64,000 nucleotides of DNA from Candidatus Melainabacteria bacterium. Its GTDB lineage: Bacteria; Cyanobacteriota; Vampirovibrionia; 2-02-FULL-35-15. The position numbers were made by a program, and so were the translations under genes. Every line of letters starts with the position of its first letter. Position 1 is the first letter of the stretch. Shown here piece after piece: positions 9,841-63,193 of this stretch. Below the pieces are notes generated by a model, which saw nothing but the letters and a program-made list of their open reading frames with translations, made no database searches and was not told the DNA's origin. The stretch covers positions 406,661-470,660 of the forward strand of contig JAHFBF010000001.1 of NCBI GenBank assembly GCA_023250195.1. The letters run 5' to 3'.

Positions 9841-10242
9841 ATGAAAAAGAGTTTTAACAAAAGAGCAATTATGTCAGCATTAGCAATTACAGTCGGTGCT
9901 GCCGCCAGCACTTCTGCAGCTGATTTCAGTCTAAAAGAAGTTAATAGCCAGTCCTTACTTATTGCACATGACGGAGAAGCCAAGTGTGGTGAAGGTAAAT
10001 GCGGTGAAAAGAAAGAAACCACTACCAAAGCAAAGGCTGCTGAAGCCAAATGCGGTGAAGGTAAATGTGGTGAAAAAAAAGAAACCACTACCAAAGCAAA
10101 GGCTGCTGAAGCCAAATGCGGTGAAGGTAAATGTGGCAGCAAAAAAGAGAGAAAAACAAAAAAAGAAGCTACTAAAAAAGCAAAAAGTGCTGAAGCCAAA
10201 TGCGGTGAAGGTAAATGCGGCGAAGGCAAAACAAAGAAATAA
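9841..10242 (+). CDS. secreted Cys-Gly repeat protein, candidate HvfA/bufferin-like RiPP metallophore precursor
   Basis: RBS AAGGAG; Sec-type signal peptide (MKKSFNKRAIMSALAITVGAAASTSAA); four tandem copies of EAKCGEGKCGE(KKETTTKAKAA); the core matches EAKCGEGQCG at the end of the small ORF upstream of the MNIO gene at 45292..45444. Confidence 0.6.
   Translation: MKKSFNKRAIMSALAITVGAAASTSAADFSLKEVNSQSLLIAHDGEAKCGEGKCGEKKETTTKAKAAEAKCGEGKCGEKKETTTKAKAAEAKCGEGKCGSKKERKTKKEATKKAKSAEAKCGEGKCGEGKTKK
9978..10230 (+). repeat. about 66-bp tandem coding repeats (4 units) within 9841..10242
   Basis: Units AGCCAA(G/A)TG(T/C)GGTGAAGGTAAATG(C/T)GG... repeated head-to-tail; the opposite-strand ORF 9819..10229 is an artefact of this repeat. 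Confidence 0.85.
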
Positions 10243-20454: not shown

Positions 20455-20504
20455 AATTATACCTTCATAATACAGATCTGATAGAAGCGCGATAAATCGC
20501 GCTT

Positions 20505-20861
20505 CTACGCAGGCTTTTTCTTTGAATCCAATGACTGTATTGAATTAGCCAGGATAGTCAGACGATAATGGTTTTTATTTTCCTTGTCTTTCCACCTATC
20601 AGGTTTTAGTTCACCATGAACTACAATCATTCTGCCTTTAGTCAGATAATTTTCAGCAAACTCTGCCTGCTTACCCCAGGCTACAATACCATCTATAAAG
20701 TCTGCATCAATTTGCTTTTCACCCTCCTTATGTTTTTTTCTAATATTCCTGACAGCAAGGCTTAAATTTGCTTTGAAATATTTTTTATTTATACCTACCT
20801 CTTCGACCTCCGGATCTCTCGCTAATCTACCGATTAATGTAACTTGATTTTGAGCTGACAT
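20505..20861 (-). CDS. single-stranded DNA-binding protein-like OB-fold protein (no acidic C-terminal tail)
   Basis: NQVTLIGRLARDPEV...GIVAWGKQAEFAENYLTKGRMIVVHGELKPDRWKDKENKNHYRL follows the SSB OB-fold pattern; canonical DDDIPF-type tail absent. Confidence 0.6.
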   Translation of the reverse strand: MSAQNQVTLIGRLARDPEVEEVGINKKYFKANLSLAVRNIRKKHKEGEKQIDADFIDGIVAWGKQAEFAENYLTKGRMIVVHGELKPDRWKDKENKNHYRLTILANSIQSLDSKKKPA

Positions 20862-24950: not shown

Positions 24951-24980
24951 TTTAGGGTGCACTGTTACATGCACCCTAAA
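24951..24980 (-). terminator. rho-independent terminator downstream of 25016..27964
   Basis: 11-bp stem TTTAGGGTGCA/TGCACCCTAAA with 8-nt loop, followed on the transcript by a U-run; near-identical copy at 28132..28157. Confidence 0.7.
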
Positions 24981-28131: not shown

Positions 28132-28157
28132 TAGGGTGCACTGTTACATGCACCCTA
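28132..28157 (-). terminator. rho-independent terminator downstream of 28187..32443
   Basis: TAGGGTGCA-CTGTTACA-TGCACCCTA hairpin, duplicate of 24951..24980. Confidence 0.7.
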
Positions 28158-28186: not shown

Positions 28187-31100
28187 TTAGAAGTCACAGA
28201 TTACACGGAATCCACGACGCTCGTCAGTAGTAGTAGTCACATCATTACCATCAATTATAAGTGGTGAAGGAGCACTGGCACCATCATTACAAGCACCACC
28301 ACGAGTTATACCGTATTGTGCATCTGTTGTAGTTGTAGAAAGAGTTCCTGAATTCTTCCCGCCATTTGTATCATTCAAGCCACCATTTGCAGTAGCAGGA
28401 AGTCCAAGTCCACTAAAAGTAGATGATGTTGATATATCTATAGAGTTAAAGATCGCTCCATCTGTCGTAAATGGAAGCACTGATCCTGCTCCTGTATAGC
28501 CAGTATCAACTACAAAGTCTGAGCCAGACATGGTAGAAGAATTTGTAAAAGTATAGTCAATCCATTCTTTTACATTTCCAACAAGATCATAGACCTGTTT
28601 ATCACCATCCAAAGTATCAGCACCTGATCCACCATTGTCATCTTTAACAGCATCTGCTGTACTACCAAGTGAAGTACCTGTCGCATTTATAGTAGCTGAA
28701 CCATCTAAAAGATGTCCCCAGCTCTTATAACCTGTTCCAGTTAAGCAGACATCGCCAGTACCACTTTGATCTGGATCATCTTCACATACAGATGAACCAC
28801 TATCTCTGCCATCTCTGTTTCCATTTCTGGTATTCCCTCTTTCATTCCAACCGTTTGTAGCAGTTGAACCAAAGAGTCCTGTACTTTTTGCAACTTTACC
28901 AAGAATATAAAGAGCAGTCCACTCTTTCATTCCTATAAGTCTGCATGAACCAATACCAGTAATTTGTCTATTTAAACTAGATGCATTTGTCTTTGCAGTA
29001 GCCTGACTTATGTTTGTCCATGGCTCTACTCTACGTTGGCTTACAGGTACACTAGAAGTTCCTTGATCTGTTGCTGTAGCATTTGCTCTAGAAGCTTCAT
29101 ACTTGTCTATCCAGAAACCACCATACTCTACACCTTTATAAGTAAACTTTGGTATTTTTACCATTCTAGTCATACTGCTCATGTCATTTGTAGTGTAGTT
29201 TACTTCATCAGATAAAGTATTCCAGTTATTCACCAAACCGATAATTGCTGCTTCCTGGCAATCATCAGCTGTATATAAACCGTCATTATTTACATCTTCA
29301 GCTGCATCATTTACACCATCTTCATCTACATCCCAGCAGTTAATTCCATTAGTTCCATTTGAACCATTGGTTCCGTTTGTACCATTAATTCCATTACAGA
29401 CATAGCTGGTAGAAGCGATTTCACCACCAGTTAGCATATTGTCATTATTTGCATCAATACCGGCTTCCACTTTCTGACCGCCAGCTGTACAGTTTGCACC
29501 TGAACCTTCAGATGTTACAACAACTAAGCTAGTTGAGCCATTGGTTCCGTTAGTACCATTAGTTCCATCAGTTCCAGCACAATCAGCAACGTCTACTACA
29601 GTATCACCATTTAGATCTTCAGTTGCTACATCACCTACTCCATTATTATTTAAATCCCAGCAGGCTTGTCCGTTGGTTCCATTAGTACCGTTAGTTCCAT
29701 TAGTTCCGTTGGTTCCGTTAGTACCATTGGTTCCGTTTGTACCATTAGTTCCATCAGTTCCAGCACAATCAGCAACGTCTACTACAGTATCACCATTTAG
29801 ATCTTCAGTTGCTACATCACCTACTCCATTATTATTTAAATCCCAGCAGGCTTGTCCATTGGTTCCGTTGGTTCCGTTAGTTCCATTGGTTCCGTTAGTT
29901 CCGTTAGTTCCGTTGGTTCCGTTAGTTCCATTAGTTCCGTTGGTTCCGTTTGTACCATTGGCTCCATTACAGACATAGTTTGTAGAAGTAATTTCACCAC
30001 CAGCTAAAGAACCATTATTATTTGTATCCAGTCCAGATTCTACTTTTTTCCCACCATTAGCACAATTTGCACCAGCTGATTCTGTAGTAACCTTTACCAA
30101 GCTGTTCAAACCGTTGGTTCCATTTGTACCATTAGTTCCGTTGGTTCCGTTTGTACCATTGGCTCCATTGCAGACATAGTTTGTAGAAGTAATTTCACCA
30201 CCAGCTAAAGAACCATTGCCATTTGTATCTATTCCAGATTCTACTTTCTTTCCACCATTAGCACAATTTGCACCGGCTGATTCTGTAGTAATCTTTACCA
30301 AACTGTTCAAGCCATTGGTTCCGTTAGTTCCGTTAGTACCATTAGTTCCATTTGTACCGTTGCATACATAAGTAGTTGATGTAATTTCTCCTCCACTTAA
30401 AGAACCATTGCCATTTGTATCAACCCCACTCTGTATCTTCTTTCCACCATTAGCACAGTTTCCACCTGGGTTTTCATTTGAGGATGTTACAAGTGTTTGT
30501 AAACCATTGCAAACATATGATGTAGCATCAACTTCTCCCGAGTCAAGAGTACTATCACCATCATCATCTACTCCTACCTGAATTTTTCTTCCACCGTTTG
30601 CACAGTTTCCACCTGGGTTTTCATTTGAGGATGTAATTAAACTGTTTGATCCATTACATGCATAAGTCGTAGAGTCTATTTCACCTGCATCAAGTGTGTT
30701 ATCTCCATCATCATCTACTCCTACGCGAATCTTTCTACCACCGCTTGGACAGTTTGCTCCAGATGGTTCGCTTGAAGATGTAATTAAACTGTTTGATCCG
30801 TTACATGCATAGGTTGTAGAGTCTATTTCACCTGCATCAAGTGTGTTATCTCCATCATCATCTACTCCTACGCGAATCTTTCTACCACCGCTTGGACAGT
30901 TTGCTCCAGATGGTTCGCTTGAAGATGTAATTAAACTGTTTGATCCGTTACATGCATAAGTCGTAGACTCAACTTCTCCAAGATCAAGAACATTGTCTCC
31001 GTCATCATCTACTCCTGCCTGAAATTTTCTACCACCACTTGGACAGTTTGCTCCGGATGGTTCGCTTGAGGATGTAATTAAACTGTTTGATCCATTACAT

Positions 31101-32443
31101 GCATAGGTCGTTGATGTAATTTCTCCACTATCAAGAACACCACTTCCATCAGTGTCAGTACCAACTTCAAACTTTTGCCCACCGCTTGGACAGTTTGCTC
31201 CGGATGGTTCGCTTGATGTATTAGTTAAACTATTTTCACCTGCAGGAATACCAAGAACTAAAGTACACAAAATAGAATTAAAAGTAGTAGTAGCTGCTAA
31301 ACCTGGCGCAAGGGTAACATTTGAAATTACAAGTGTTGCATTCATATCATCACAAACACCCATTCCATCAGATCCATTACTTCCATTAATTCCATTAAAA
31401 CCTACAGGAATGCTGAAAGTAAGGTTACAAAGAACTGGATCAAAAAACACATCAGACATTGAACCTGGGATTCCATTGTTTGTAGTAATCATTAATAAAG
31501 CATTCATATCATCACAAACACCCATTCCATCCACGCCATTCATACCATCCATAATTACAACAGATGGATTAATGTTTGCATTATCAGGAGATAAACCATT
31601 TGTTCCAAGGGTCGGATTATTTACAAGTACTCCATTTACTATAGTGACCGTATTGCCAGTAAGCGGACTTGTAATAGTTACATCTCTATAACCATTTGGG
31701 GCATTACTTGTTGAAGTTGCCAATACCTTTAAAGTAGAATCATCTAAAGCTATGGTATCTCTTACAGTAATATCACCATTGCTGAATGAAACTGCTGTTA
31801 ATGCATCCAATCCTTTTCCTAGAAGTGTAAGTGTAGTTTCAACACCGGGATTTATAACTGATGGGGTTACTGCATCCAGTCTAAAGTTTGGCCTTGTAAA
31901 CACAATCGTGTCAGTAGAATCATTATCATCAATAGTAGCTCTTACAGTATATTGGCCAGGAAGACGTCCTTTTACAAATACTTTGAATATTTTAAAGTCC
32001 AGAGCCTGAACTATTAAGCTTTGATTTTGAGTTTTATTTAAATTAAAAGTAACTGATTGATTTTTTGTAACTATTTTGTTCTTGCCTGTTTTTGTCAACT
32101 TTTGATCTTCTCTAAGCTCTGATGTTCTAAATATCTTTAATCCACCCATTAAAAGTGTGGAATTATCAATTCCAAGGCCTGTTCCCTGTGCACCAATAAC
32201 TTCTACTCTTACAACCATTGCATCAGGCTTAAGTAACAGATCCAGGGGTATTCTTTGATCAAGTTCTATATTATTCCTGTCATATCTGAATGCCGGCAAT
32301 AAATTAGCTGATACTCTCTCTTGAGAGATTGTAGTTTTGGTTTTAACTGCATAAATATTAACTGCATAAGCAGCACCGGTTTGATTCAGCAGAAGTGCAG
32401 CTATTAACACAACCCTACATAGAAAGCTTAATTTATTTTTCAT
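28187..32443 (-). CDS. giant secreted protein, paralog of 25016..27964 (expanded repeat modules, C-terminal FGE-sulfatase-like domain)
   Basis: 1418 aa; same signal peptide and N-domain; at least 7 tandem 45-aa modules SLITSSSEPSGANCPSGGRKxxVGVDDDGDNTLDAGEIDSTTYACNGSN (three nearly identical); (GTN)n tracts up to 13 triplets; duplicated CWDLNNNGVGDVATEDLNGDTVVDVADC units; C-terminal YDLVGNVKEW / GFRVICDF. Confidence 0.85.
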   Translation of the reverse strand: MKNKLSFLCRVVLIAALLLNQTGAAYAVNIYAVKTKTTISQERVSANLLPAFRYDRNNIELDQRIPLDLLLKPDAMVVRVEVIGAQGTGLGIDNSTLLMGGLKIFRTSELREDQKLTKTGKNKIVTKNQSVTFNLNKTQNQSLIVQALDFKIFKVFVKGRLPGQYTVRATIDDNDSTDTIVFTRPNFRLDAVTPSVINPGVETTLTLLGKGLDALTAVSFSNGDITVRDTIALDDSTLKVLATSTSNAPNGYRDVTITSPLTGNTVTIVNGVLVNNPTLGTNGLSPDNANINPSVVIMDGMNGVDGMGVCDDMNALLMITTNNGIPGSMSDVFFDPVLCNLTFSIPVGFNGINGSNGSDGMGVCDDMNATLVISNVTLAPGLAATTTFNSILCTLVLGIPAGENSLTNTSSEPSGANCPSGGQKFEVGTDTDGSGVLDSGEITSTTYACNGSNSLITSSSEPSGANCPSGGRKFQAGVDDDGDNVLDLGEVESTTYACNGSNSLITSSSEPSGANCPSGGRKIRVGVDDDGDNTLDAGEIDSTTYACNGSNSLITSSSEPSGANCPSGGRKIRVGVDDDGDNTLDAGEIDSTTYACNGSNSLITSSNENPGGNCANGGRKIQVGVDDDGDSTLDSGEVDATSYVCNGLQTLVTSSNENPGGNCANGGKKIQSGVDTNGNGSLSGGEITSTTYVCNGTNGTNGTNGTNGTNGLNSLVKITTESAGANCANGGKKVESGIDTNGNGSLAGGEITSTNYVCNGANGTNGTNGTNGTNGTNGLNSLVKVTTESAGANCANGGKKVESGLDTNNNGSLAGGEITSTNYVCNGANGTNGTNGTNGTNGTNGTNGTNGTNGTNGTNGTNGQACWDLNNNGVGDVATEDLNGDTVVDVADCAGTDGTNGTNGTNGTNGTNGTNGTNGTNGTNGQACWDLNNNGVGDVATEDLNGDTVVDVADCAGTDGTNGTNGTNGSTSLVVVTSEGSGANCTAGGQKVEAGIDANNDNMLTGGEIASTSYVCNGINGTNGTNGSNGTNGINCWDVDEDGVNDAAEDVNNDGLYTADDCQEAAIIGLVNNWNTLSDEVNYTTNDMSSMTRMVKIPKFTYKGVEYGGFWIDKYEASRANATATDQGTSSVPVSQRRVEPWTNISQATAKTNASSLNRQITGIGSCRLIGMKEWTALYILGKVAKSTGLFGSTATNGWNERGNTRNGNRDGRDSGSSVCEDDPDQSGTGDVCLTGTGYKSWGHLLDGSATINATGTSLGSTADAVKDDNGGSGADTLDGDKQVYDLVGNVKEWIDYTFTNSSTMSGSDFVVDTGYTGAGSVLPFTTDGAIFNSIDISTSSTFSGLGLPATANGGLNDTNGGKNSGTLSTTTTDAQYGITRGGACNDGASAPSPLIIDGNDVTTTTDERRGFRVICDF
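29670..29970 (-). repeat. hexanucleotide tracts encoding (Gly-Thr-Asn)n plus duplicated about 190-bp unit
   Basis: GTTGGTTCCATTAGTACCGTTAGTTCC... tracts at about 29670..29760 and 29858..29970 flanking duplicated ...CAGCACAATCAGCAACGTCTACTACAGTATCACC... units; the opposite-strand ORF 29541..29978 is an artefact. Confidence 0.85.
30470..31210 (-). repeat. tandem about 135-bp coding repeats (45-aa Asp-rich modules)
   Basis: Repeated ...TCCACCTGGGTTTTCATTTGAGGATGT... and ...GGACAGTTTGCTCC(A/G)GATGGTTCGCTTGA(A/G)GATGTAATTAAACTGTTTGATCC... blocks; boundaries approximate. Confidence 0.75.
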
Positions 32444-32761
32444 TTTGAAAATTCTCCTGTTTTTTTAACTAGCTAACTCTTCTCAGATTAAGAAATAAGT
32501 TAAATCCAAGTACAAGCCCTTTTTACGATCCATGACAGCCCTAAGGTTATATTATAACTGGATATCATTCAACTCTTTTTATAATTTATTTATCTTCATT
32601 TTGTTATAAAGACAAAATACACTTGCTTCAAAAAACTCTAAAACAAAGATTGATCAGGAAATATATATTTTTAGATTAATTATTTTTAATATATTATGAT
32701 CATTGAACTGATTCCAGTTAATCTACATTGATTTTTTTAATTTAGGTACTAAAACACTAAA

Positions 32762-38120: not shown

Positions 38121-38193
38121 TGGACCCAAGCGGGTTCGAACCGCTGACCTCCTCCGTGCAAGGGAGGCGCTCTACCAACTGAGCCATGGGCCC
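38121..38193 (-). tRNA. tRNA-Ala (anticodon UGC)
   Basis: Reverse complement GGGCCCATGGCTCAGTTGGTAGAGCGCCTCCCTTGCACGGAGGAGGTCAGCGGTTCGAACCCGCTTGGGTCCA folds as a cloverleaf: 7-bp acceptor stem with the G3:U70 alanine identity pair, anticodon loop CTTGCAC, T-loop GGTTCGAAC; CCA not encoded. Confidence 0.85.
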
Positions 38194-43725: not shown

Positions 43726-44472
43726 TCAAATTAATATTCTGCTCTTCTTTAATACACTAACTAATTTCATAGCTTCTTTCTCAAAATTCTTATAATTACT
43801 CTTATCCACCTGGTAAGCATTTGCCAGGAAATATATAACCATATCAATTGATAACCCGGATTTTAAAAGTTCTATAAATGCAAAACTACTTGTTGAAAGC
43901 TCAAAAAATCTTACATTGAAATTCTTTGGATCCCGATAAATTAGAACATTTGTTATTTGTTTATATATCTTCCCTAAAGGTTGATTATTTTCAATCATTT
44001 CAACAATTTCAGGAATTGCATATTGAAAAGCACAAATCTCATGTACTGGATTCAAGCAAAGAGTCTTATTAGCTTTCTTAATTCCTTCTTTCTCATATAT
44101 TTTCACTTCAAGCCATTCATAACATGCAAGTTCACTTATAAAAGGATAGTTTTTTAAGATGTCTTTTCTCGTAAATAAATATTCGGGTAAATGCTCAACT
44201 ACTTTATTAAAAATTGGAGAGCCTGGCGGATATTTTTCCAAATAATCAGATAATAAATCGTCCCAAATTTTACTCAATAACTTATAAGTCACCGGATAAA
44301 TATTTACAGATAAATCGTGAAAAGAACCTCTGACTAATTCACGGTAAATTTTTATTCTTTCAAGGATTGACCTGGATAAACCTTTAACTTTATTTTTTTT
44401 ACTCCAGACAGAATCAAATAGAATCAAATCTTTAATTACTTTTTGAGTTTTTTTTAGACTATTTAAAGTCAC
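43726..44472 (-). CDS. DUF2063-family partner protein of the MNIO enzyme (HvfC/BufC-like)
   Basis: Start overlaps the MNIO stop (translational coupling); N-terminal half follows the DUF2063 pattern (IYRELVRGSFHDLSVNIYPVTYKLL...YPPGSPIF...LPEYLF...PFISELACYEWLE). Confidence 0.65.
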   Translation of the reverse strand: MTLNSLKKTQKVIKDLILFDSVWSKKNKVKGLSRSILERIKIYRELVRGSFHDLSVNIYPVTYKLLSKIWDDLLSDYLEKYPPGSPIFNKVVEHLPEYLFTRKDILKNYPFISELACYEWLEVKIYEKEGIKKANKTLCLNPVHEICAFQYAIPEIVEMIENNQPLGKIYKQITNVLIYRDPKNFNVRFFELSTSSFAFIELLKSGLSIDMVIYFLANAYQVDKSNYKNFEKEAMKLVSVLKKSRILI

Positions 44473-45347
44473 TAAGCCGCCTTCTTAAAAGATTTCATAA
44501 TAGTCTTGATTTTTTTTATTTCATTGAGCAGTTCTGAGAACTTTGGGAAATTAAAATCCCTTTCCAGCAATACTGCTTTTGGTGTGCATCTTTTTAAAAG
44601 TTCACCAAATAAATTGTAAACATCTCTGATAATTGGTTCACCATGCGTATCAATAATAATTTTCCCTCTGTTTAAATGCCCTGCTATATGTACCTGTACA
44701 GTACGTTCAATAGGAATACTATCCAAAAACCTTATCGGGTCATATTTATGATTTTTACTGTTTACATAAACATTATTTATATCTAGAAGTAACCCACAAT
44801 CTGCTTTTTCAAGGATTTGTGAAATGAAATCTGCTTCACTCATTTCATTATCTATAACCATATAATAAGAAGGATTTTCAATCAAAAAAGGAACCTGGAA
44901 AATATCCTGAGCTTTTTTTATTCTATTTACTAAATGTTTGACTGTAACTTTGTTATAAGGTAAAGGAATCAAGTCATGAATGTATGTTTTCTCAACATAG
45001 TTAAAACATAAATGATCACTAAACCATGAGGGGTCTATAATTTTAAAAAGCTTTTTTACGTTATTAATTAAAGCCGGATCAAACGGTTCTGTACCACCAA
45101 TTGAAAGATTTAATCCATGAGGAATAATTGGAAAATATTTTTTAGCATTTACAAGCCTTTCAAATATTTCTCCACCACGACAGATATAATTCTCAGGAGC
45201 AATTTCAAGCCAGTCAATTTGATTTTTATGTCTCAGAATAGGGCTATATAACTCTCTTCTTAGTCCAAGTCCAACCCCAAAATTTGGTAATTTATTTTTT
45301 TCTTTTTGAAATGTTTTTCCCATCACCGCCACATTGACCTTCACCAC
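44472..45347 (-). CDS. MNIO (multinuclear non-heme iron-dependent oxidative enzyme, DUF692), RiPP-modifying
   Basis: Ordered DUF692 hallmark motifs: FGVGLGLRRE, WLEIAPENY, HGLNLSIGG, FSDHLCF, FLIENPSYY, LLLDINNVYVNS, VQVHIAGH, IIDTHGEPI, AVLLERDFNFP. Start uncertain (GTG 45347 or ATG 45323). Confidence 0.85.
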   Translation of the reverse strand: MVKVNVAVMGKTFQKEKNKLPNFGVGLGLRRELYSPILRHKNQIDWLEIAPENYICRGGEIFERLVNAKKYFPIIPHGLNLSIGGTEPFDPALINNVKKLFKIIDPSWFSDHLCFNYVEKTYIHDLIPLPYNKVTVKHLVNRIKKAQDIFQVPFLIENPSYYMVIDNEMSEADFISQILEKADCGLLLDINNVYVNSKNHKYDPIRFLDSIPIERTVQVHIAGHLNRGKIIIDTHGEPIIRDVYNLFGELLKRCTPKAVLLERDFNFPKFSELLNEIKKIKTIMKSFKKAA

Positions 45348-45444
45348 ACTTAGCTTCTATGTAATGCTTCAATCGATCCTCACAAGATCGGATTTGCCGG
45401 ATAAACCAGACAAATCCTTTAAATACTAGAGCATTGTTTGTCAT
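45292..45444 (-). CDS. candidate RiPP precursor peptide (leader plus EAKCGEGQCGGDGK core)
   Basis: 50-codon ORF from ATG 45444 (alternative TTG 45474), 20 nt downstream of the CoA-transferase stop and overlapping the MNIO start; C-terminal core EAKCGEGQCG matches the repeat of 9841..10242; no Sec signal peptide. Confidence 0.5.
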   Translation of the reverse strand: MTNNALVFKGFVWFIRQIRSCEDRLKHYIEAKCGEGQCGGDGKNISKRKK

Positions 45445-45463
45445 ATCAGATAAAATATTAACA

Positions 45464-47260
45464 CTATTTTGCAATTACCTGCCCAGTTGGATCAATCTCT
45501 TTTCTTAATATTTTCAGTTCTTTTTGTGTAGGCTCTTTTGTTATTGGAGCAGCTTTGAGACCTGCTTTTACATTAATCTTGAAGGATGATCTGTTTTGCA
45601 CTTCTTCTAATGTAATCCCCGGATGCAAACTCTCAATTTGCATTTCTTTTGTTTCTTTATCAAATCCAATTACACAACAATCAGTTATTACTTTTAAAGG
45701 GCCTGCATTTGGTGGTAGTCCTGCTTTTTCTCTGCTCCCTGCTCCAGTTAAATATCCCGGCGTGGTTAGAAAATCAAGCTTCTCTACAAATTTATGCTTG
45801 TCCATCTTGATTATAATAATAGTATTCCAGCAAAGGGAAGCCAGATCATTTGCCCCGCCGCTGCCGGGAAGCCTGACTTTTGGTTTTTCATAATTAGTGC
45901 CAATCATAGTGGAATTTAGATTCCCATATTTATCTATCTGAGCACCACCTAAAAATGCATAATCAACCATTCCACGGGCACAGGTCTCCATAATCTCAGG
46001 CATGCTTGTTGCTACAAGGCTTTTATAGTGGGTCCTTGAATCACCTACAGACATTGGAAGTGATGGAAGTAAAGGTGCTATACCACCTGCTTCAAACATC
46101 ATTAAAAGATTTGGTGCCTGAGTTTTCTGTGCAAGCATAGCAGCTAACATTGGAAGCCCTGTTCCAACAACGACAGTCTTTCCATCTTCTAAAAATCTGC
46201 TTGCGGTACAGATCATGAACTCAGTCATGTTATATGACTGCGTATTGCGTATCGAGTATTGTGTATTGAGTTTAGGCTCTGGTTTGAGTTCCATCGTCTT
46301 TAATTCTTCCAATTTATTTTTTCCACCACAAATTTCCAGATAGCCATTCCAATCTTTAATATCATAAATGTATTTATTTAAAAATTTTTCGAAGGTCTGA
46401 AGCTCTTTTTCTGCTTCACTCCACTCTCTCAAATGCTCCAAATCAAAGTAATATTTCCCCGGCATGTTACATGGATAAGAACCATAAGGCACATGAACAA
46501 CAGCATCTACACAATAATAAGGAATAATAGTTCTTTCAGGCTCTGATCTTATTTGATCCGTAGAAATTATTTCTTCTGTAGTAATGATTATCTTTTTTGA
46601 CGCTCTAGCTAAATCACTATCAGAAACAGTAATTCCATCTATCTGGCAATTTCCAAACTCATCTGCTCGCGGAACATGAATTATTGCTACATCAGGGGAA
46701 CAGGCTGGAACAAGAGCATATATTTCTCCAGTAAATGGACATTTGTATTCAATTGCCCTGCTGTGTTTTATGGTTTCAGTTCCAAGCATAGATCGAACCG
46801 GCAAAAATGATAATCCCATCGCAGCTGCTTTAAATCGCCATGCAAGTGTTGCGTTTGTCCATTCAGTAACTTTTACTTTTCCTTCCTGAAAAACTCTTCT
46901 GTAATTTGGTGAAAGTCCTAAAAGCTCAATACCCACCACATACGCTGCATCTACTTTATCTATACAACCTCCTGCACAAAGAATCTGCCCATCATGCGTA
47001 GCAGTATGTCCTGCAAGTGCCAGGTGTTTTTTCTTTTGCCTGACAATTTCATGCAATGCAGCAGCCGGGATTCTATCCATTCCAAATCCGCCAATTCCAA
47101 GATAATCTCCATCCTGAACAAGTCTTTGAATCGCAGACTTTAGATCAGTGATTTTACTGATCATTTTTCTTGATTTTTTAAGGTTAATTTCTCGAAGCTG
47201 ATCGGGCGAGGTAAAACCATATAGTTCACGATCTTGTTTTGTATAAGTGGATATATTCAT
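45464..47260 (-). CDS. family I CoA-transferase, fused A and B subunits (glutaconate/3-oxoacid CoA-transferase-like)
   Basis: N-half LVQDGDYLGIGGFGMDRIP...TEWTNATLAWRFKAAAMGLSFLP (A subunit) and C-half with GSGGANDLAS and MMFEAGG (B subunit); linker contains a short tandem repeat. Confidence 0.75.
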   Translation of the reverse strand: MNISTYTKQDRELYGFTSPDQLREINLKKSRKMISKITDLKSAIQRLVQDGDYLGIGGFGMDRIPAAALHEIVRQKKKHLALAGHTATHDGQILCAGGCIDKVDAAYVVGIELLGLSPNYRRVFQEGKVKVTEWTNATLAWRFKAAAMGLSFLPVRSMLGTETIKHSRAIEYKCPFTGEIYALVPACSPDVAIIHVPRADEFGNCQIDGITVSDSDLARASKKIIITTEEIISTDQIRSEPERTIIPYYCVDAVVHVPYGSYPCNMPGKYYFDLEHLREWSEAEKELQTFEKFLNKYIYDIKDWNGYLEICGGKNKLEELKTMELKPEPKLNTQYSIRNTQSYNMTEFMICTASRFLEDGKTVVVGTGLPMLAAMLAQKTQAPNLLMMFEAGGIAPLLPSLPMSVGDSRTHYKSLVATSMPEIMETCARGMVDYAFLGGAQIDKYGNLNSTMIGTNYEKPKVRLPGSGGANDLASLCWNTIIIIKMDKHKFVEKLDFLTTPGYLTGAGSREKAGLPPNAGPLKVITDCCVIGFDKETKEMQIESLHPGITLEEVQNRSSFKINVKAGLKAAPITKEPTQKELKILRKEIDPTGQVIAK

Positions 47261-47267
47261 TTGGAAT

Positions 47268-47364
47268 ACGTCATTGCGAGGGCTTTAGCCCGAAGCAATC
47301 TCCCTAACTAATTCACGTTTTTGAGATTGTTTCGTCAGCCCTTTGGGCTTCCTCGCAATGACGT
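47268..47364. repeat. compound palindromic element (14-bp terminal inverted repeats ACGTCATTGCGAGG / CCTCGCAATGACGT with two internal hairpins)
   Basis: Lies 8 nt upstream of the CoA-transferase start and just downstream of the flavin-reductase stop; related to elements at 48071..48154 and 63073..63148. Confidence 0.75.
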
Positions 47365-47392
47365 GAATAGTTCTTTTTTTGTAATTCAGTAC

Positions 47393-48052
47393 TCATTTGT
47401 TATTTGGGTTCTCTCCAACAGGTATTTTTATCGTAGGCCTTGGTAAGCTAAATATATCAGTCACTCTTGCATAATCTGTACCGCCTAGCCTTGCTATCGG
47501 TTTTAATTCACTTAAAATAATTTTACCATCCTTATAAACATTCTCCTGGACATGAAAATATACAACTTCACCAATAACTACCGTTCCACCACCTGGTTTG
47601 TTTCCAATTTCTACCAGGTGTAACAACTTACACTCCATGTTTATTTTTGCTTCTTTTACAAGTGGTGGTTTAACCATATTTGCTCGTACAGGTGTTAAAC
47701 CACTTTCCTTAAACTCATCAACACCATAAGAATATTCAGCAGAACATTGATTCATCTTTTCAGCAATTTCTTCAGAAACAATATTTACAACAAACTCTTT
47801 AGTAACTTTTATGTTTTTTAAAGTGTCTTTTTCCTGTCCATCAGATCCACGAACAACCGGACAAAATAAAACAGTCATTGGCTCAGAACAAACACCATTA
47901 AAAAAACTAAAGGGGGCAAGGTTATAAATACCATTTGGGCTTACAGTAGAAACAAATCCAATTGGCCTTGGAACAATTGAACCAATAAGTAATTTATACC
48001 GATCCTGAAAAGGAATTTCTTTTGTATTTATAGAGATTTTATTTTCAGTCAT
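47393..48052 (-). CDS. flavin reductase-like (FMN-binding split-barrel) protein
   Basis: YKLLIGSIVPRPIGFVSTVSPNGIYNLAPFSFFNGVCSEPMTVLFC matches the flavin-reductase-like domain. Confidence 0.8.
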   Translation of the reverse strand: MTENKISINTKEIPFQDRYKLLIGSIVPRPIGFVSTVSPNGIYNLAPFSFFNGVCSEPMTVLFCPVVRGSDGQEKDTLKNIKVTKEFVVNIVSEEIAEKMNQCSAEYSYGVDEFKESGLTPVRANMVKPPLVKEAKINMECKLLHLVEIGNKPGGGTVVIGEVVYFHVQENVYKDGKIILSELKPIARLGGTDYARVTDIFSLPRPTIKIPVGENPNNK

Positions 48053-48070
48053 GAAAATATTTTAGCGTAT

Positions 48071-48154
48071 ATGTCATTCCCCGGCTTGACCGGGGAATCC
48101 AGAAACTCACACTAATAACTATCTCCTGGATACCCGCTTCCGCGGGTATGACAT
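48071..48154. repeat. compound palindromic element (ATGTCATTCC-hairpin-GGAATCC ... GGATACC-hairpin-GGTATGACAT)
   Basis: Two GC-rich hairpins (CCCCGG-CTTGA-CCGGGG; CCCGC-TTCC-GCGGG) bounded by inverted ATGTCAT/ATGACAT; 19 nt upstream of the flavin-reductase start. Confidence 0.75.
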
Positions 48155-48191
48155 TTTATTGTAATGGACATTTCTACATTACAATTATTAT

Positions 48192-48920
48192 ATGTTCCTT
48201 CAAAAAGATGAATTAAGCAAATTTAACTTTATCTCTACAAAAGAATTTCTTTTAGCACTATTGCTAATGCTAATTACAACAATCTCCTGCTTTATCATTC
48301 TGCCCGTTTTTCTCAAACAGAATTCACTTGTCCAGAAAGATTTTTTTGACTCAAATTACTTTGGAATTATTGTTTTTTTTCTTTCTTCTATATTCACCTT
48401 ATACATTACTTATTTCTTCTGTTGTCAAAGAAAAAACAGACCTTTAAAAGAAGGATTGTTTCTATCTATGCCATCAAACAAAATTTTTCTTATCTCTATT
48501 TTAATTGGAATCCTTATGCCTTTGCTCTCACTGCCAGTAATTTTTAAATTTGCACCAGATGAATTTTACGCAATGGATCTGATTAATACAAAAGCTGGTC
48601 TTCTTTATCTTTTTACATGTGCACTATTCGCTCCGATATTTGAGGAAATCTTTTATCGCGGTTTTATCTTTCCTTTTTTTCAAAGCAAATTAAATAGTTT
48701 CTGGGCCATTATAATCACTGCTTTATTTTTTGGATTTTCACATTTTATGAATATTGGAAATGCTCATATTTTGCTTAGTTTGTTTATTTTTTATGGCTTT
48801 GTTTTAACCTTAATCAGATACTTTTCAAACTCTTTAATCCCTTCCATAATCACCCATTTCGTTCATAATCTGACACTTATGATCAGCTTTTTTATAATGT
48901 CAAAGACTGCTTTAGGTTAA
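48192..48920 (+). CDS. CPBP-family intramembrane metalloprotease (CAAX protease / Abi-like)
   Basis: Conserved motifs FAPIFEEIFYRG (EExxxR), FGFSHFMN (FxxxH) and ITHFVHNL (HxxxN) in a polytopic membrane protein. Confidence 0.8.
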   Translation: MFLQKDELSKFNFISTKEFLLALLLMLITTISCFIILPVFLKQNSLVQKDFFDSNYFGIIVFFLSSIFTLYITYFFCCQRKNRPLKEGLFLSMPSNKIFLISILIGILMPLLSLPVIFKFAPDEFYAMDLINTKAGLLYLFTCALFAPIFEEIFYRGFIFPFFQSKLNSFWAIIITALFFGFSHFMNIGNAHILLSLFIFYGFVLTLIRYFSNSLIPSIITHFVHNLTLMISFFIMSKTALG

Positions 48921-55495: not shown

Positions 55496-57004
55496 ATGAA
55501 AGAAACTAAAAAAAACAATAGATTGTTTTGGACTTTTGTTATTGCTTTTTTGATTATTATTTTAATTCCTTTCTGTTTTAAAGATAGATATATCTGCGAA
55601 AATTTGAAACTGAAAGAAGCCATAAGCTGCTTATCTTATAGCGATTTAGTAAACCTTACAAAACAACCAATACCAAATTCACCACTTTACTTTAAACTTC
55701 AAAAACAGTTAAATACTCCTTATATATTTAATAAAACTTTCCTTACCATGTTCTCAGGGCGCGATAAATCGCGCCCATACAATTTTTTACGTCTTGCACA
55801 TTGGAACATACAAAGAGGGTTTAATGTAACTGCAATTAAAACCATCCTAAGCAATAAATACCGGTACTACAATAGTTATAAAAATAATCTGGATAGTTCT
55901 ACACAAAGTGATTTAAAAAAAGAACTGGAAGATATCTCCAGAAGCGATATTATCTCCTTAAATGAAGTCGATGTTGGAATGCCAAGAACCGACTATAAAA
56001 ATATTGCATCTGAAATAGCAATGGCACTTAATTATAATTATGTTTTTGCTACTGAGTTTATAGAATTAAATTCAATAATTTACAAACAAAGGATTAATCC
56101 TGCTCGTTACCTGGGTTTACATGGAAATGCAATTATTTCCAGATACCCAATTAAATCTGCTCGTATAATCAGGCTTCCTGAATACTATAAGTGGTACGAA
56201 GCTGAGATTCAAAAGAAATCTATGCTAGAAAGTGTCCGTCGAGTTGGTGCAAAAGGAGCATTTAGTGAAAATATTACAAAAAATGAGGTACGGCGTGGGG
56301 GGCGAAATGCCCTTATTGCAGATATAGAACTGCCAAATAAAGAAATTATTACAGTGGTTTCAACACATCTTGAAGACAGATGCTTCCCTGACAAACGTTT
56401 TCAGCAATTTGAATATTTACTTTCAAACTTAAGAACTTTAAGGAGATCTGTTGTACTTGCCGGTGATTTTAATACCACTACTACAGACTCAGCCCCTGCA
56501 TCATTGAAGAAAGAACTTGTAAAAAGGATTAGAGATCCTCACTATCTTACCCGTCAGGCAGTTTTAGCAATAATTCCTATAGGTGGCATACCAGGAGTAG
56601 TCAATCTTGCTTCTTTTGGCTTAAGCAAATTAATTCAATACAAAGATCCTACTGCACCAAGTATTCCAATATTTCTTCCAAACCAGGAGAAAAAATTTTT
56701 TAACTATTTAAAAGATTTCCGTTTTACTGATGGTGAAGTCTTTGATATAAGTGGAGATAGAAGTTCAAATGGTAAAAGAGGATTGCTTGCAAGCTCAAAC
56801 GAAAGACAACTAAAAGGTTTCGAAAGTACATTTAAATTCATAGAACCGCGAGTTATTGCATATTATAAGCTTGACTGGTTTTTTGTAAAACCAAAAGGAA
56901 ACAGGTTCAAACCCTTTAACGGTCAAACATTACAACTGATTAACCATGTATATCCTGGAAGAGTTTCTGATCATGAGCCTATTATTGTAGATTTAAATTT
57001 ATAG
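55496..57004 (+). CDS. endonuclease/exonuclease/phosphatase (EEP) family protein
   Basis: EEP motifs LRLAHWNIQRG, GLHGNAIISRYPI, VVSTHLEDR, VLAGDFNT, SDHEPIIVDL; N-terminal TM anchor; contains in-frame palindrome at 55757..55776. Confidence 0.8.
   Translation: MKETKKNNRLFWTFVIAFLIIILIPFCFKDRYICENLKLKEAISCLSYSDLVNLTKQPIPNSPLYFKLQKQLNTPYIFNKTFLTMFSGRDKSRPYNFLRLAHWNIQRGFNVTAIKTILSNKYRYYNSYKNNLDSSTQSDLKKELEDISRSDIISLNEVDVGMPRTDYKNIASEIAMALNYNYVFATEFIELNSIIYKQRINPARYLGLHGNAIISRYPIKSARIIRLPEYYKWYEAEIQKKSMLESVRRVGAKGAFSENITKNEVRRGGRNALIADIELPNKEIITVVSTHLEDRCFPDKRFQQFEYLLSNLRTLRRSVVLAGDFNTTTTDSAPASLKKELVKRIRDPHYLTRQAVLAIIPIGGIPGVVNLASFGLSKLIQYKDPTAPSIPIFLPNQEKKFFNYLKDFRFTDGEVFDISGDRSSNGKRGLLASSNERQLKGFESTFKFIEPRVIAYYKLDWFFVKPKGNRFKPFNGQTLQLINHVYPGRVSDHEPIIVDLNL
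55757..55776. repeat. GC-rich palindrome GGGCGCGATAAATCGCGCCC inside the EEP-family CDS
   Basis: Translated as ...SGRDKSRP...; shares the 16-bp core GCGCGATAAATCGCGC with the intergenic palindrome at 20482..20507. Confidence 0.8.
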
Positions 57005-60125: not shown

Positions 60126-61502
60126 ATGCCGGAAACCCTTACAAAACAAATCAGCAAAGCAAAAGAAATTGCAAGTTATGTTTTATCACAAAAGAAAGAA
60201 TCACTTTCAAAAGAAGTTATTCATGAAGTAAAAAGAAGAATTATTGATAGCCTTGCCTGTGCAATAGGGGCATATGATTCAAAGGTCTGTAAAATTGTTT
60301 TAAAGGCATGTTCAAAAATAAAAGGAAAATATAAAGCTCCCTTATTTGGAAAAGGAAAAGAAGTTTTTTATGAGGAAGCTGCTTTTGCAAATGGGGCACT
60401 TGTTAGATATCTGGATTTTAATGATACTTATTTATCTTTAGAGCCTGCTCATCCATCAGATAATATTGCACCTCTATTAGCATGTGCACAAGCATATGGA
60501 AAAAGCGGTCTTGATTTAATCCTGGCTATTGCAATTGCTTATGAAATACAATGTCAGCTCTGTGATGGTGCATCACTTCGTGCTAAAGGAATTGATCATG
60601 TTACTTACGGAGCATTTTCCACTGCATGCGGTGCAACTGTATTAATGGATTTAGATGAAGAACAGTTGGAAAATGCACTTGGTATTGCCGGTGTTTGTAA
60701 CATTGCCACACGTCAGACAAGAGTCGGCGAAATGTCCATGTGGAAAGCATGTGCATTTGCTAATGCTGCAAGACAGGGACTATTTGCAGCAAGATTAGCA
60801 AAAGAAGGAATGACAGGACCTGCTCCAATATTTGAAGGAACAAAAGGGTTTGAAACCTTAGTTTCAGGACCAATGAATTTAAAACTTCCAAATATTGGCG
60901 AACCACCAAAGAAAATTCTAGAAACCTATATTAAACCTTATCCTGTAGAATATCATGCACAGAGTGCAGTTGAAGCTGCTATAAAATTAAACAAAGAGGG
61001 TTTAAAAATTGATCAGGTTCAGGAAATGACTGTTTATACTCATGGCGCTTCTTACCAAATAATTGGTTCAGAACCTGAGAAGTGGAGACCTACATCAAAA
61101 GAAACCGCTGATCACAGCCTCCCTTACTGCACAGCTATTGCACTTCGGGATGGAAACGTAACCGATGAAAGTTTTCATAAGAAAAACTACAAAGACTCTA
61201 ATTTGCTAAAGTTCTTAAAGAAAATAAAAGTAGTTGAAGATCAAAGATATACTTCTGATTATCCAAAAAGTTTTGGAAACAGATTAGAGATAAATTTATT
61301 TGATGGAAAGAAAATTATAAAAGAAGTTTTACATCCATTTGGTCACCCAAGAAATCCTATGAAGGATGAGGATGTATTTAGTAAGTGGAGAACACTGGCT
61401 GGTCCGCACCTTGGACAAAATAATATTGAAGAGCAGATTGAGAAAGTAATGATGCTTGAGCATCAAAAAGGACTCTCCACATTAATGCCAGAAGTCAGTT
61501 AA
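60126..61502 (+). CDS. prpD: MmgE/PrpD-family protein (2-methylcitrate dehydratase-like)
   Basis: RRIIDSLACAIGAYDS, HPSDNIAPLLACAQAYGKSGLDLILAIAIAYEIQCQL and downstream PrpD-type segments; methylisocitrate lyase gene lies downstream. Confidence 0.75.
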   Translation: MPETLTKQISKAKEIASYVLSQKKESLSKEVIHEVKRRIIDSLACAIGAYDSKVCKIVLKACSKIKGKYKAPLFGKGKEVFYEEAAFANGALVRYLDFNDTYLSLEPAHPSDNIAPLLACAQAYGKSGLDLILAIAIAYEIQCQLCDGASLRAKGIDHVTYGAFSTACGATVLMDLDEEQLENALGIAGVCNIATRQTRVGEMSMWKACAFANAARQGLFAARLAKEGMTGPAPIFEGTKGFETLVSGPMNLKLPNIGEPPKKILETYIKPYPVEYHAQSAVEAAIKLNKEGLKIDQVQEMTVYTHGASYQIIGSEPEKWRPTSKETADHSLPYCTAIALRDGNVTDESFHKKNYKDSNLLKFLKKIKVVEDQRYTSDYPKSFGNRLEINLFDGKKIIKEVLHPFGHPRNPMKDEDVFSKWRTLAGPHLGQNNIEEQIEKVMMLEHQKGLSTLMPEVS

Positions 61503-62055: not shown

Positions 62056-62367
62056 ATGGCAAAGAAAGAATCACTAAATAAAAACTGGACCGAAATTGGT
62101 GTGGTAAATGGCCCTGATCTTCAAAATAGGATCGTTATAACTCCTATTGTAACTTGGTTAAAACAACATATTGATAGCTTCAAAGTATTTATAAACTCTA
62201 GTGGTAATGTACTTTTAAAACCAATGATTAGTCTTCCGCTAGAAGAAGCATGGCCTTATCAAGATCCCAAGATATTATCCAACGTTCTAAAAGGTATCGA
62301 GGAAGCAAAAGCAGGAAAAGCCAAGCCATTTGATTTAAAAAAATTAAAAGAATTAGATGATGTTTAA
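62056..62367 (+). CDS. putative type II antitoxin (AbrB/MazE-like swapped-hairpin)
   Basis: RIVITPIVTWLKQHIDSFKVFINSSGNVLLKP resembles the SpoVT/AbrB fold; stop overlaps the start of the downstream toxin-like gene. Confidence 0.45.
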   Translation: MAKKESLNKNWTEIGVVNGPDLQNRIVITPIVTWLKQHIDSFKVFINSSGNVLLKPMISLPLEEAWPYQDPKILSNVLKGIEEAKAGKAKPFDLKKLKELDDV

Positions 62368-62653
62368 TATCAAATTAACTCCTTTAGCTTTGAAACAATT
62401 GGAGGAGATAAAAAAACGAGAGCCAAGGCAAGGATTACTAAAGCAAATCATAAAGACAATCAGATTTTTAAGTGAAAATCCAAGACATCCTTCTTTGCAT
62501 ACTCATAAAAATCAAAGGTTGAGCAATCTACATGGTTTAGATATTTTTCAAGTATATGCACAGAACTACACTTCAGGTGCTTACCGTATCTTCTTTACTT
62601 ATTCTGCTAAAGATGAAATTACTATTACTTCTATAGAAGCACATCCAGATTAG
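62357..62653 (+). CDS. putative type II toxin (RelE/ParE-superfamily-like)
   Basis: 98 aa basic protein; C-terminal ...SGAYRIFFTYSAKDEITITSIEAHPD resembles the RelE/ParE C-terminal pattern; 11-nt overlap with the upstream small gene. Confidence 0.45.
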   Translation: MMFNIKLTPLALKQLEEIKKREPRQGLLKQIIKTIRFLSENPRHPSLHTHKNQRLSNLHGLDIFQVYAQNYTSGAYRIFFTYSAKDEITITSIEAHPD

Positions 62654-62977: not shown

Positions 62978-63072
62978 CTTCTGTTGTAAGCTGAACTGTT
63001 TTAAAAAGCCATCTTAAAAAGGTGGCTTTTTTGTTTTTGATTATAAATCAGTTTTGCTCAATTAATGTTTTC

Positions 63073-63148
63073 ATGTCATTCCCGCGAAAGCGGGAATCCA
63101 GTATCGGTAGCAGTCTTGCCTGGATTCCGGGTCAAGCCCGGAATGACA
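63073..63148. repeat. compound palindromic element (TGTCATTCC-hairpin-GGAATCC ... GGATTCC-hairpin-GGAATGACA)
   Basis: Hairpins CCCGCGAAAGCGGG and CCGGGTCAAGCCCGG bounded by inverted TGTCAT/ATGACA; 45 nt upstream of the prpB start; same family as 48071..48154. Confidence 0.75.
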
Positions 63149-63193
63149 AGGAAATGACAGAAGAATCTAAAATGAGCTAAAATAACTTCTGTA

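Follow-up and report, generated by a model that had tools for sequence, protein, structure and literature searches.

Palindromic elements around a flavin-reductase gene of a Candidatus Melainabacteria bacterium as probable gene-less inverted pairs of NTS/dRS3/SRM-type repeats

The window analysed here, a stretch of 64,000 nucleotides from a Candidatus Melainabacteria bacterium (contig JAHFBF010000001.1, positions 406,661 to 470,660), contains a flavin-reductase gene flanked by two palindromic elements, A and B1, and a third element, B2, upstream of prpB. The original prediction had described these three elements, and the window sequence confirms them as strongly structured palindromes at 47268-47364, 48071-48154 and 63073-63148. 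We propose, with a probability of about 0.78, that they are non-coding DNA repeats of the type known as Neisseria Transformation Sequence (NTS), dRS3 or Ssn-related motif (SRM), present in a gene-less paired form and inserted secondarily between existing genes. The flavin-reductase and CoA-transferase genes are both on the minus strand, and element A separates the stop of the former (47393) from the ATG of the latter (47260). B1 occupies the gap upstream of the flavin reductase, whose neighbour there is a divergently oriented Rce1-like protease gene. The gene 3' of B2 belongs to the phosphoenolpyruvate-mutase/isocitrate-lyase family, consistent with its previous designation as prpB. The elements, their arms and the neighbouring genes are as follows.

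47268-47364, no strand assigned: element A, made of two A-type arms in inverted orientation, in the flavin-reductase/CoA-transferase gap
47268-47303: left arm of A, ACGTCATTGCGAGG-GCTTTAGC-CCGAAGCAATCTC
47323-47364, read on the minus strand: right arm of A, ACGTCATTGCGAGGAAGCCCAAAGGGCTGACGAAACAATCTC
48071-48154, minus strand: element B1, an inverted pair of NTS/SRM-type arms
48072-48102, plus strand: arm of B1, TGTCATTCCCCGGCTTGACCGGGGAATCCAG, matching the SRM pattern
48125-48152, minus strand: arm of B1 (B1R), TGTCATACCCGCGGAAGCGGGTATCCAG, identical to NTS at 24 of 28 positions
63073-63148, plus strand: element B2, an inverted pair
63074-63101: left arm of B2, TGTCATTCCCGCGAAAGCGGGAATCCAG, identical to NTS at 27 of 28 positions and including dRS3
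63119-63147, minus strand: right arm of B2, TGTCATTCCGGGCTTGACCCGGAATCCAG
47393-48052, minus strand: flavin-reductase-like gene (PF01613), ancestral at the site and not cargo
45464-47260, minus strand: fused CoA-transferase gene (PF01144), overlapping or abutting the flavin-reductase gene in relatives without element A
48192-48920, plus strand: divergent Rce1-like/CPBP protease gene, kept as a neighbour in the relatives L132, L133, L214 and the P0132 contig

The outer arms of A (47268-47281 and 47351-47364) are 14 nt long and 100 % complementary, and are accompanied by an inner 12-nt pair (47291-47302 and 47323-47334) and two small hairpins. The arms of B1 (48071-48081 and 48144-48154) comprise 11 nt with 91 % complementarity, together with two perfect local hairpins; those of B2 extend over 63068-63082 and 63140-63154, with hairpins at 63078-63097 and 63124-63144. 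B1 and B2 have the same build, namely TGTCAT...ATGACA ends, two perfect GC-rich hairpins of 8-9 bp and an inner CCAG/CTGG stem, and B1 read on the minus strand shows the arm order of B2, a GNRA-loop arm followed by a TCAAG-loop arm. On either strand, all three elements fold into an outer stem with three hairpins, with minimum free energies of -49.9 kcal/mol for A, -35.7/-42.5 for B1 and -38.5/-35.7 for B2. The fold z-scores range from -4.9 to -7.5, and none of 200 dinucleotide shuffles folded equally well. The head motif GTCATTCCSSSS occurs four times in the window, against 0.45 expected.

A full-text literature search with the sequence of the B2 left arm led to Chenal et al. 2025, Nat Commun (PMC11893778). 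The accessible text of this paper defines the 28-nt NTS as CGTCATTCCCGCGMAVGCGGGAATCYRG, with one mismatch allowed, states that it includes the classical dRS3 repeat ATTCCC-N8-GGGAAT, and gives the degenerate SRM pattern HGTCWYN(0-2)YYVSBRHN(0-5)WNVSBRGN(0-2)RNCYNB. According to the same text, the 94-aa GIY-YIG protein SsnA binds the hairpin only as single-stranded DNA (ssDNA) and on one strand only, and cuts it a few nucleotides upstream; a GTC just 5' of the palindrome and a C just 3' of it are critical for both cleavage and binding, and the RNA form of the motif is not bound. The repeats flank ssn genes across phyla, Rickettsia is among the genomes with more than 300 SRMs, and DNA of the NTS-gene-NTS type lowers transformation of N. 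meningitidis in an SsnA-dependent manner (PMC11893778).

The B arms of the window belong to this family of NTS/dRS3/SRM repeats. Indeed, the B2 left arm agrees with the NTS consensus at 27 of 28 positions and is 96.8 % identical to N. gonorrhoeae over 31 nt by blastn, and B1R agrees at 24 of 28 positions, two of its mismatches compensating each other. The published SRM expression is matched at 48072-48102(+) and 63074-63101(+), that is, twice in the window against 0.09 expected, and the other two B arms are near misses. The dRS3 pattern is present at 63078-63097 (ATTCCCGCGAAAGCGGGAAT), the other arms carrying variant stems; the two arms with a CTTGA loop depart from NTS in both stem and loop. 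Nevertheless, all four B arms read GTC-AT[T/A]CC...GG[A/T]AT-C. The GTC before and the C after the palindrome, critical for SsnA in the available text of PMC11893778, are found in every arm, including those of A. Element A represents a variant subfamily composed of YGTCAT, a bulged hairpin and ATC: its arms (CGTCAT-TGCGAGG[hairpin]CGAAGCA-ATC) are built as the B arms are, with a longer, bulged hairpin, and show the YGTCAT head, the hairpin and the ATC as CGTCAT-TGCGAGGGCTTTAGCCCGAAGCA-ATC. This shared build points to A-type membership in the NTS/SRM family.

To place the elements in their genomic context, we compared the locus in eight relatives, whose CoA-transferases are 77-89 % identical to that of the window; one close homolog of the CoA-transferase, at 83 % identity, is named Candidatus Melainabacteria. 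The flavin-reductase gene is immediately upstream of the CoA-transferase gene in 8/8 relatives, usually with an Rce1-like gene divergent upstream and MbnB-like and DUF2063 genes downstream. The state of the two intergenic positions is the following.

Flavin-reductase/CoA-transferase junction, L132 and L216: ATGA overlap, element-free
Flavin-reductase/CoA-transferase junction, L214: 1-nt gap, element-free
Flavin-reductase/CoA-transferase junction, P0132 contig: 4-nt gap, element-free
Flavin-reductase/CoA-transferase junction, L131: 7-nt gap, element-free
Flavin-reductase/CoA-transferase junction, L133: 22-nt gap, element-free
Flavin-reductase/CoA-transferase junction, window and L129/L130: orthologous A, one hairpin pair of which is changed from C-G to T-A in L129/L130, a compensatory change
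Flavin-reductase/CoA-transferase junction, L215: B-type element
Gap upstream of flavin reductase, L214: empty, 27 nt
Gap upstream of flavin reductase, L132: empty
Gap upstream of flavin reductase, window: B-type element (B1)
Gap upstream of flavin reductase, L133: A-type element in the Rce1-like/flavin-reductase gap, which in the window holds B1
Gap upstream of flavin reductase, L129: A-type element; the upstream neighbour is another gene, not Rce1-like
Gap upstream of flavin reductase, L131 (3235-3357): a long palindrome of another kind, AGCGTATAGCGTTTAGCGGATAGAGGGACAAGAAC..., with no relation to the A and B types

Since the flavin reductase occupies the same site in all relatives and the junction is element-free in many of them, the gene order is ancestral, and the elements came later, repeatedly and independently. 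They are thus secondary insertions, and several repeat families have colonised the region upstream of the flavin reductase. The original prediction had suggested instead that the flavin-reductase gene was a cassette, in the manner of a composite transposon, bounded by A and B1 and inserted as a unit. The bracketing by two palindromes, with the outermost arms facing outward as in forward-ssn-reverse units, would agree with such a cassette. On the other hand, the gene is ancestral in eight relatives, the outcome that the prediction itself had named as its refutation; the flavin-reductase stop overlaps or abuts the CoA-transferase start at element-free junctions; A and B1 belong to different subfamilies; and L214 (88 % identity) lacks both elements with an identical gene order. 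The cassette is thereby refuted, and we consider it extremely unlikely.

The empty sites of A are too compact and diverged for base-level alignment, and only the B1 site can be delimited, roughly, by comparison with L214. Next to B1, at 48158-48185, an inverted repeat ATTGTAATG / CATTACAAT is found, of which the empty site of L214 holds the first half only (ATTGTAAGG); the second half therefore looks like an inverted duplication of flanking DNA made with the insertion. In L131, two genes are inserted between the Rce1-like gene and the flavin reductase. L215, an 86 % relative, carries a B-type pair at 1374-1500, where the window (47261-47392) and L129 carry an A-type pair, and a spacer of ~25 nt preceding the element appears homologous across the three loci. 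The A and B states of the junction therefore suggest that one element took the place of another, rather than that two insertions occurred fully independently.

Not all copies lie between genes. A fourth, partial A-type copy, absent from the original prediction, is present within the cysI open reading frame (ORF):

16474-16535, plus strand: partial A-type copy (TGTCATTGCGAGGAGCAAAGCGACGAAGCAATCTG...GAAATGACGTGAA), in frame in cysI and encoding PVIARSKATKQSADATRND

The cysI product matches NF010029 with an E-value of 8e-206 and aligns end to end with E. coli CysI (6c3z), apart from a 19-residue gap facing PVIARSKATKQSADATRND. The fold of this copy is weak (z -0.95), which indicates that it has decayed. 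A second in-frame insert of cysI, at 16851-16905 (~18 aa, EVRDQRSENRDQKTEEKS), also faces a gap in the alignment with E. coli CysI. It is composed of degenerate heptanucleotide tandem repeats (GAGGTCA/GAGATCA/GAAAACA) and recalls the short tandemly repeated repetitive (STRR) sequences of cyanobacteria.

The family was then followed in other genomes by scanning GTDB contigs, one genome per species, with the pattern GTCATTCC..GGAATCCAG..CTGGAT. The paired architecture is present at at least 120 loci in many bacterial phyla, and the matches listed include Bacteroidota (Prevotella), Nitrospirota, Patescibacteria, Chloroflexota (Dehalococcoidia), Planctomycetota, Armatimonadota, Omnitrophota, Rickettsiaceae, and cultured Xanthomonadales and Sphingomonadales. 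Among these listed matches are 98 non-redundant head-out pairs of 50-109 nt, in which GTCAT and ATCCAG are fixed and the stems co-vary, so that the four-way-junction fold corresponds to two inverted directional hairpin units and not to a dedicated RNA fold. The genomes of L004, L027, L048, L089 and L095 also carry A-type pairs, and those of L004 and L027 end in the NTS-like inner motif GCAATCCAG. In viral contigs, A-type pairs are found at at least 120 loci versus 18 loci for the B type. The contexts of the 98 pairs, based on crude ORF calls, are 28 inside ORFs (some of them start-codon artefacts), 28 co-directional, 16 divergent, 14 convergent and 12 unclassifiable (locus edge or no flanking gene); these are roughly the proportions of the background gaps (406 co-directional, 118 divergent and 128 convergent). 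A further stretch, at 32500-32527 of the 404-kb conjugative plasmid pMC4 of Sphingopyxis indica (L355), is 100 % identical to the B2 arm over 28 nt and lies within the annotated coding sequence of ileS (isoleucine-tRNA ligase); it looks like another in-gene copy.

This multi-copy distribution across many phyla, with presence/absence at orthologous sites in close relatives, bears out the original suggestion that the elements resemble miniature inverted-repeat transposable elements (MITEs) or repetitive extragenic palindromic (REP) sequences. Classical MITEs in the strict sense, i.e. deletion derivatives of DDE-transposase insertion sequences (IS) mobilised via their terminal inverted repeats, would likewise account for short elements in many copies, with perfect or near-perfect terminal repeats, a preference for intergenic DNA and presence/absence polymorphism. 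However, 3- or 4-nt direct repeats located 0-1 nt from the element ends, as expected of a target-site duplication, are seen in only 0-2 of the 98 pairs, and the pair ends are conserved to position -1 (Y) only, complementarity being at background beyond. These two features argue against a DDE-type MITE and fit a single-strand mechanism of the REP/REP-associated tyrosine transposase (RAYT) or IS200/IS605 kind. Moreover, the termini are directional hairpin units that also occur singly and flank a 95-aa GIY-YIG gene instead of a transposase, the terminal sequence is kept across phyla, which is unusual for IS-derived MITEs, and no transposase-sized ORF separates long-range A-type arm pairs. We thus regard classical MITEs as a quite unlikely explanation.

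The position of the elements relative to transcription bears on another alternative, in which they would be cis-regulatory RNA structures in 5' untranslated regions (UTRs), acting as riboregulators or attenuators of the downstream genes. The features relevant to transcription are the following.

48059-48064, minus strand: TAAAAT box resembling a -10 element, 6 nt before the flavin-reductase ATG and between B1 and the gene; a putative promoter element
63154-63183, plus strand: ATGACA-18-TAAAAT, a promoter-like site (10/12) separating B2 from the prpB ATG (63194); a consensus match only
63003-63031, plus strand: hairpin with a T-run, terminator-like, which follows the ParE-type toxin gene and precedes B2

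The distances to start codons reported originally hold, with 7 nt to the CoA-transferase ATG for A, 18 nt to the flavin-reductase ATG and 37 nt to the Rce1-like ATG for B1, and 45 nt to the prpB ATG for B2. Such proximity, together with the very stable RNA folds, would agree with a regulatory RNA, but it carries little weight because the elements occupy 60-73 % of intergenic gaps of only 132-139 nt. The GNRA-loop arm also precedes the TCAAG-loop arm relative to the downstream gene in B1, B2 and L215, although agreement of all three copies would arise by chance with a probability of 1/4. A TAAAAT or TATAAT box is found 4-6 nt upstream of the flavin-reductase ATG in 8/8 relatives. This conserved box between B1 and the ATG suggests a near-leaderless transcript starting downstream of B1, and a promoter-like site similarly separates B2 from its ATG; promoter consensus matches are not enriched over shuffles in the promoter scan and serve as positional hints only. 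B1 and B2 are probably outside 5' UTRs, untranscribed from these promoters.

Only A is likely transcribed, as an intercistronic insert in the flavin reductase/CoA-transferase operon. It ends 7 nt from the CoA-transferase ATG, which has no Shine-Dalgarno sequence, at a place where the cistrons of the relatives overlap or abut; an effect on translational coupling or mRNA stability is therefore plausible. Yet the same operon works without elements in the relatives. Across the family, the 98 pairs adjoin 60 gene starts versus 56 gene stops, 14 of 58 intergenic cases are convergent gaps, some copies lie inside ORFs, and the downstream genes are unrelated across phyla. Searches against Rfam, at gathering thresholds over the whole window and with E-values up to 10 on 47150-48300, gave no match for the elements beyond chance level (mir-242, FtrB and others). 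An Rfam-type cis-regulatory RNA was rejected given the missing match and the heterogeneous positions and contexts of the 98 pairs. ARAGORN found no tRNA-like cloverleaf at the elements either, the sole tRNA of the window being tRNA-Ala at 38121-38193 (ARAGORN/Rfam). Finally, in the accessible text of PMC11893778 SsnA binds ssDNA and not the RNA form. Collectively, these data do not support the 5'-UTR regulatory RNA previously proposed, which we consider very unlikely.

The repeats can instead be related to ssn genes. An arm lies within 300 nt of ssn in 72 of 80 independent metagenomic ssn loci. Of 60 loci, 30 have their nearest arms in the order forward-ssn-reverse, where 25 % would be expected (p = 3e-5). 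The arm-to-gene gaps are mostly 8-30 nt, and 27 of the 30 forward-ssn-reverse units measure 354-388 bp, with a maximum of 439 bp. Loci L122 and L123 show the same arrangement, and in L074 a pair is located 28 nt upstream of ssn. Viral-contig loci (120 A-type and 18 B-type, 1.26 Mb) contain a single ssn-like gene, apparently frameshifted, at L274:10487-10889. It is flanked by GTCAG/GTCGG-headed CCCGGGCTTGACCCGGG hairpins, which indicates that the CTTGA-loop arm type is also ssn-associated.

These observations allow us to propose how the elements could have arisen. Each arm is a directional unit composed of YGTCAT, a GC-rich hairpin and ATC(CAG). In Neisseria and Wolbachia, such a unit is bound as ssDNA by the ~95-aa GIY-YIG nuclease Ssn and cut a few nucleotides upstream, as described in the available part of PMC11893778. 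Two arms joined head-out, 5'-GTCAT...CCAG-spacer-CTGG...ATGAC-3', give a palindrome of 76-97 nt, and this arrangement alone accounts for the four-way-junction fold. Since the window elements have the ends of the ~360-bp arm-ssn-arm unit minus the gene, they may be read as gene-less miniature derivatives of an IS-like unit. An Ssn-type nuclease encoded elsewhere might have spread them in trans by a single-strand mechanism that leaves no target-site duplication. They landed secondarily in tolerated gaps of the pre-existing Rce1-like/flavin reductase/CoA-transferase/MbnB-like cluster and, once, in frame in cysI. A would now part two formerly abutting cistrons with a structure of -50 kcal/mol, and B1 would displace whatever stood upstream of the flavin-reductase -10 box. 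The mobilisation by Ssn is an inference, as is any local effect on expression or recombination, which would be secondary.

Several points weigh against this interpretation. No A-type arm (GTCATTGCGAGG...GCAATC) matches the published SRM expression, because its hairpin is internally bulged and longer than the expression permits, and the accessible text of PMC11893778 gives such arms no demonstrated Ssn partner. No ssn or GIY-YIG gene was detected in the 64-kb window with a hidden Markov model of 120 Ssn homologs (--max, best E-value 0.62), a model built from relatives at least ~59 % identical to the seed, which may miss divergent Ssn. The small ORFs of the window were also inspected by eye for GIY-YIG; in the window and the fetched loci, a strict GIY-YIG regular expression had no match, a looser one matched L074 only, and phmmer seeded with L074 found only L074 itself. 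No A-type arm is present in 161 kb around 80 ssn genes, a weak negative since this sample is biased to proteobacterial Ssn. Likewise, no gene-carrying A-type unit, with forward and reverse A arms 250-2500 nt apart, was found in the fetched loci, the window and the 138 viral-contig loci; the search gave two hits, and in both cases the arms surround unrelated ORFs. That paired arms predominate over single ones in our sample is a biased result, as the scan pattern demanded the inverted partner (CTGGAT). In addition, transposition by Ssn is raised only as a hypothesis in the accessible text of PMC11893778 and has been demonstrated by no one.

A further step is put forward only tentatively: the inverted SRM pairs of 76-97 nt would be true transposable elements of the non-autonomous kind, derived from a ~360-bp "GTCAT-ssn-ATGAC" unit, and would represent a class of bacterial mobile element in which the 95-aa GIY-YIG ssDNA nuclease acts as a transposase without target duplication. 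If so, elements would repeatedly hit or replace one another at the same junctions, as at the stop/start junction that is A-type in the window and B-type in L215, and the A-type subfamily, which is very abundant in viral contigs, would rely on a nuclease still to be found. The compact forward-ssn-reverse unit and the gene-less miniature pairs sharpen the hypothesis of Ssn as a transposase-like enzyme, which the original paper, in its accessible text, left open.

Alternatively, or in addition, the repeats could be used by the host as REP-like mRNA stabilisers, terminators, insulators, or Ssn target marks limiting replacement by transformation; such a secondary role is compatible with NTS/SRM-type insertions. 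Provided that the host encodes a matching Ssn and can take up DNA, genes between SRMs would resist such replacement, as NTS-flanked DNA does in N. meningitidis according to the available text of PMC11893778, and the flavin reductase is indeed bracketed in the window. The orthologous A copies have kept their hairpin through a compensatory change, and the right hairpin of B1 with its T-run scores as terminator-like on the plus strand. However, the compensatory change is single and anecdotal, the window lacks a detectable Ssn gene, A and B1 are of different subtypes and might need different nucleases, and close relatives manage without the elements. A host use is thus possible but doubtful on the present data.

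The closest known systems compare as follows. The window elements share with NTS/SRM repeats, as described in the accessible text of PMC11893778, the B-arm sequence, the GTC-palindrome-C direction, a very wide phylogenetic spread, an intergenic bias and the forward-gene-reverse bracketing seen around ssn genes. They differ from them by the fusion of arms into gene-less inverted pairs of 76-97 nt, an arrangement not described in that text, by their host, apparently a Melainabacteria-like metagenome-assembled genome (MAG), and by the absence of an ssn gene from the 64 kb of the window. The analogy with REP sequences, their bacterial interspersed mosaic elements (BIMEs) and RAYT, an IS200/IS605-type TnpA, was drawn by the authors of the Ssn paper (PMC11893778, accessible text). 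In both systems the repeats form hairpins whose 5' head is conserved, are frequently joined as inverted pairs, lie between genes without target-site duplications and bracket a small nuclease gene, with ssDNA recognition presumed for both. It is likely a functional analogy. The partner proteins differ in fold, GIY-YIG here and HUH there, and REP sequences are particular to a species, whereas GTCAT...ATCCAG is shared across phyla.

The Neisseria intergenic mosaic elements (NIMEs) are dRS3-bounded arrays of 50-150-bp RS units and are targets of phage integrases. The B2 left arm has the dRS3 core, and in both cases repeats flank genes and short intergenic modules, but the window contains single compact inverted pairs and belongs to an unrelated phylum. 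Rickettsia palindromic elements (RPE), reportedly described by Ogata et al. in 2000, are said to be inserted in frame in essential protein genes and to measure ~100-150 bp. They resemble the window elements as palindromic repeats tolerated in frame in essential genes, here cysI, and the Rickettsiaceae MAG L109 carries a B-type pair; they are longer, and the likeness drawn here is one of description. A literature search for a link between RPE and GIY-YIG found no paper. Correia elements and other MITEs with terminal inverted repeats resemble the window elements in that they are of similar size, end in inverted repeats, lie between genes and may affect nearby promoters and transcripts. Correia elements generate a TA target duplication and have unrelated termini, unlike the family studied here, which shows no target-site duplication.

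This kind of repeat, selfish or recombination-related in nature, was described in 2025, and the novelty here is modest, consisting of the paired form and the extension of the family to a Melainabacteria-like lineage. The series of empty, A-filled and B-filled states at a single operon junction, in relatives with 86-89 % CoA-transferase identity, provides the type of evidence needed on the mobility of Ssn-associated repeats. Such repeats also yield spurious ORFs, in-frame inserts in real proteins and assembly breaks, and their recognition as Ssn-type averts misreading as cassettes or riboswitches. For instance, a spurious 61-codon stop-to-stop frame runs across B2 (62995-63177), reading MSFPRKRESS...WIPGQARNDK (...MSFPRKRESSIGSSLAWIPGQARNDKEMTEESKMS). 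The peptide signatures FPRKRES and WIPxxARND presumably recur as 'hypothetical proteins' wherever the repeat family is present.

Other features of the window were noted. The stretch 62056-62653, between the prpD-like gene (60126-61502) and B2, holds a ParE-family toxin gene (62357-62653) overlapped by a small ORF upstream, which probably encodes an antitoxin. Two ORFs without Pfam hit contain cysteine motifs: 9841-10242(+), with four tandem copies of AEAKCGEGKCGEKKETTTKAK, and 45292-45474(-) (..AKCGEGQCGGDG..), which immediately precedes the MbnB/TglH/ChrH (DUF692) and DUF2063 genes (43726-45347). We take both to resemble EGKCG-type precursor peptides of DUF692-modified copper-binding ribosomally synthesised and post-translationally modified peptides (RiPPs), of the bufferin-like kind. 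Identical 26-nt hairpins, TAGGGTGCA-CTGTTACA-TGCACCCTA, occur at 24953-24978 and 28132-28157, 30-40 nt past the stops of two large genes for collagen-like repeat proteins (25016-27964 and 28187-32443, minus strand), and are probably shared terminators or 3' ends of paralogues. Two GC-rich hairpins, at 20482-20507 and 55757-55776, share the core GCGCGA-TAAA-TCGCGC within AT-rich intergenic DNA and may represent another small repeat or terminator type.

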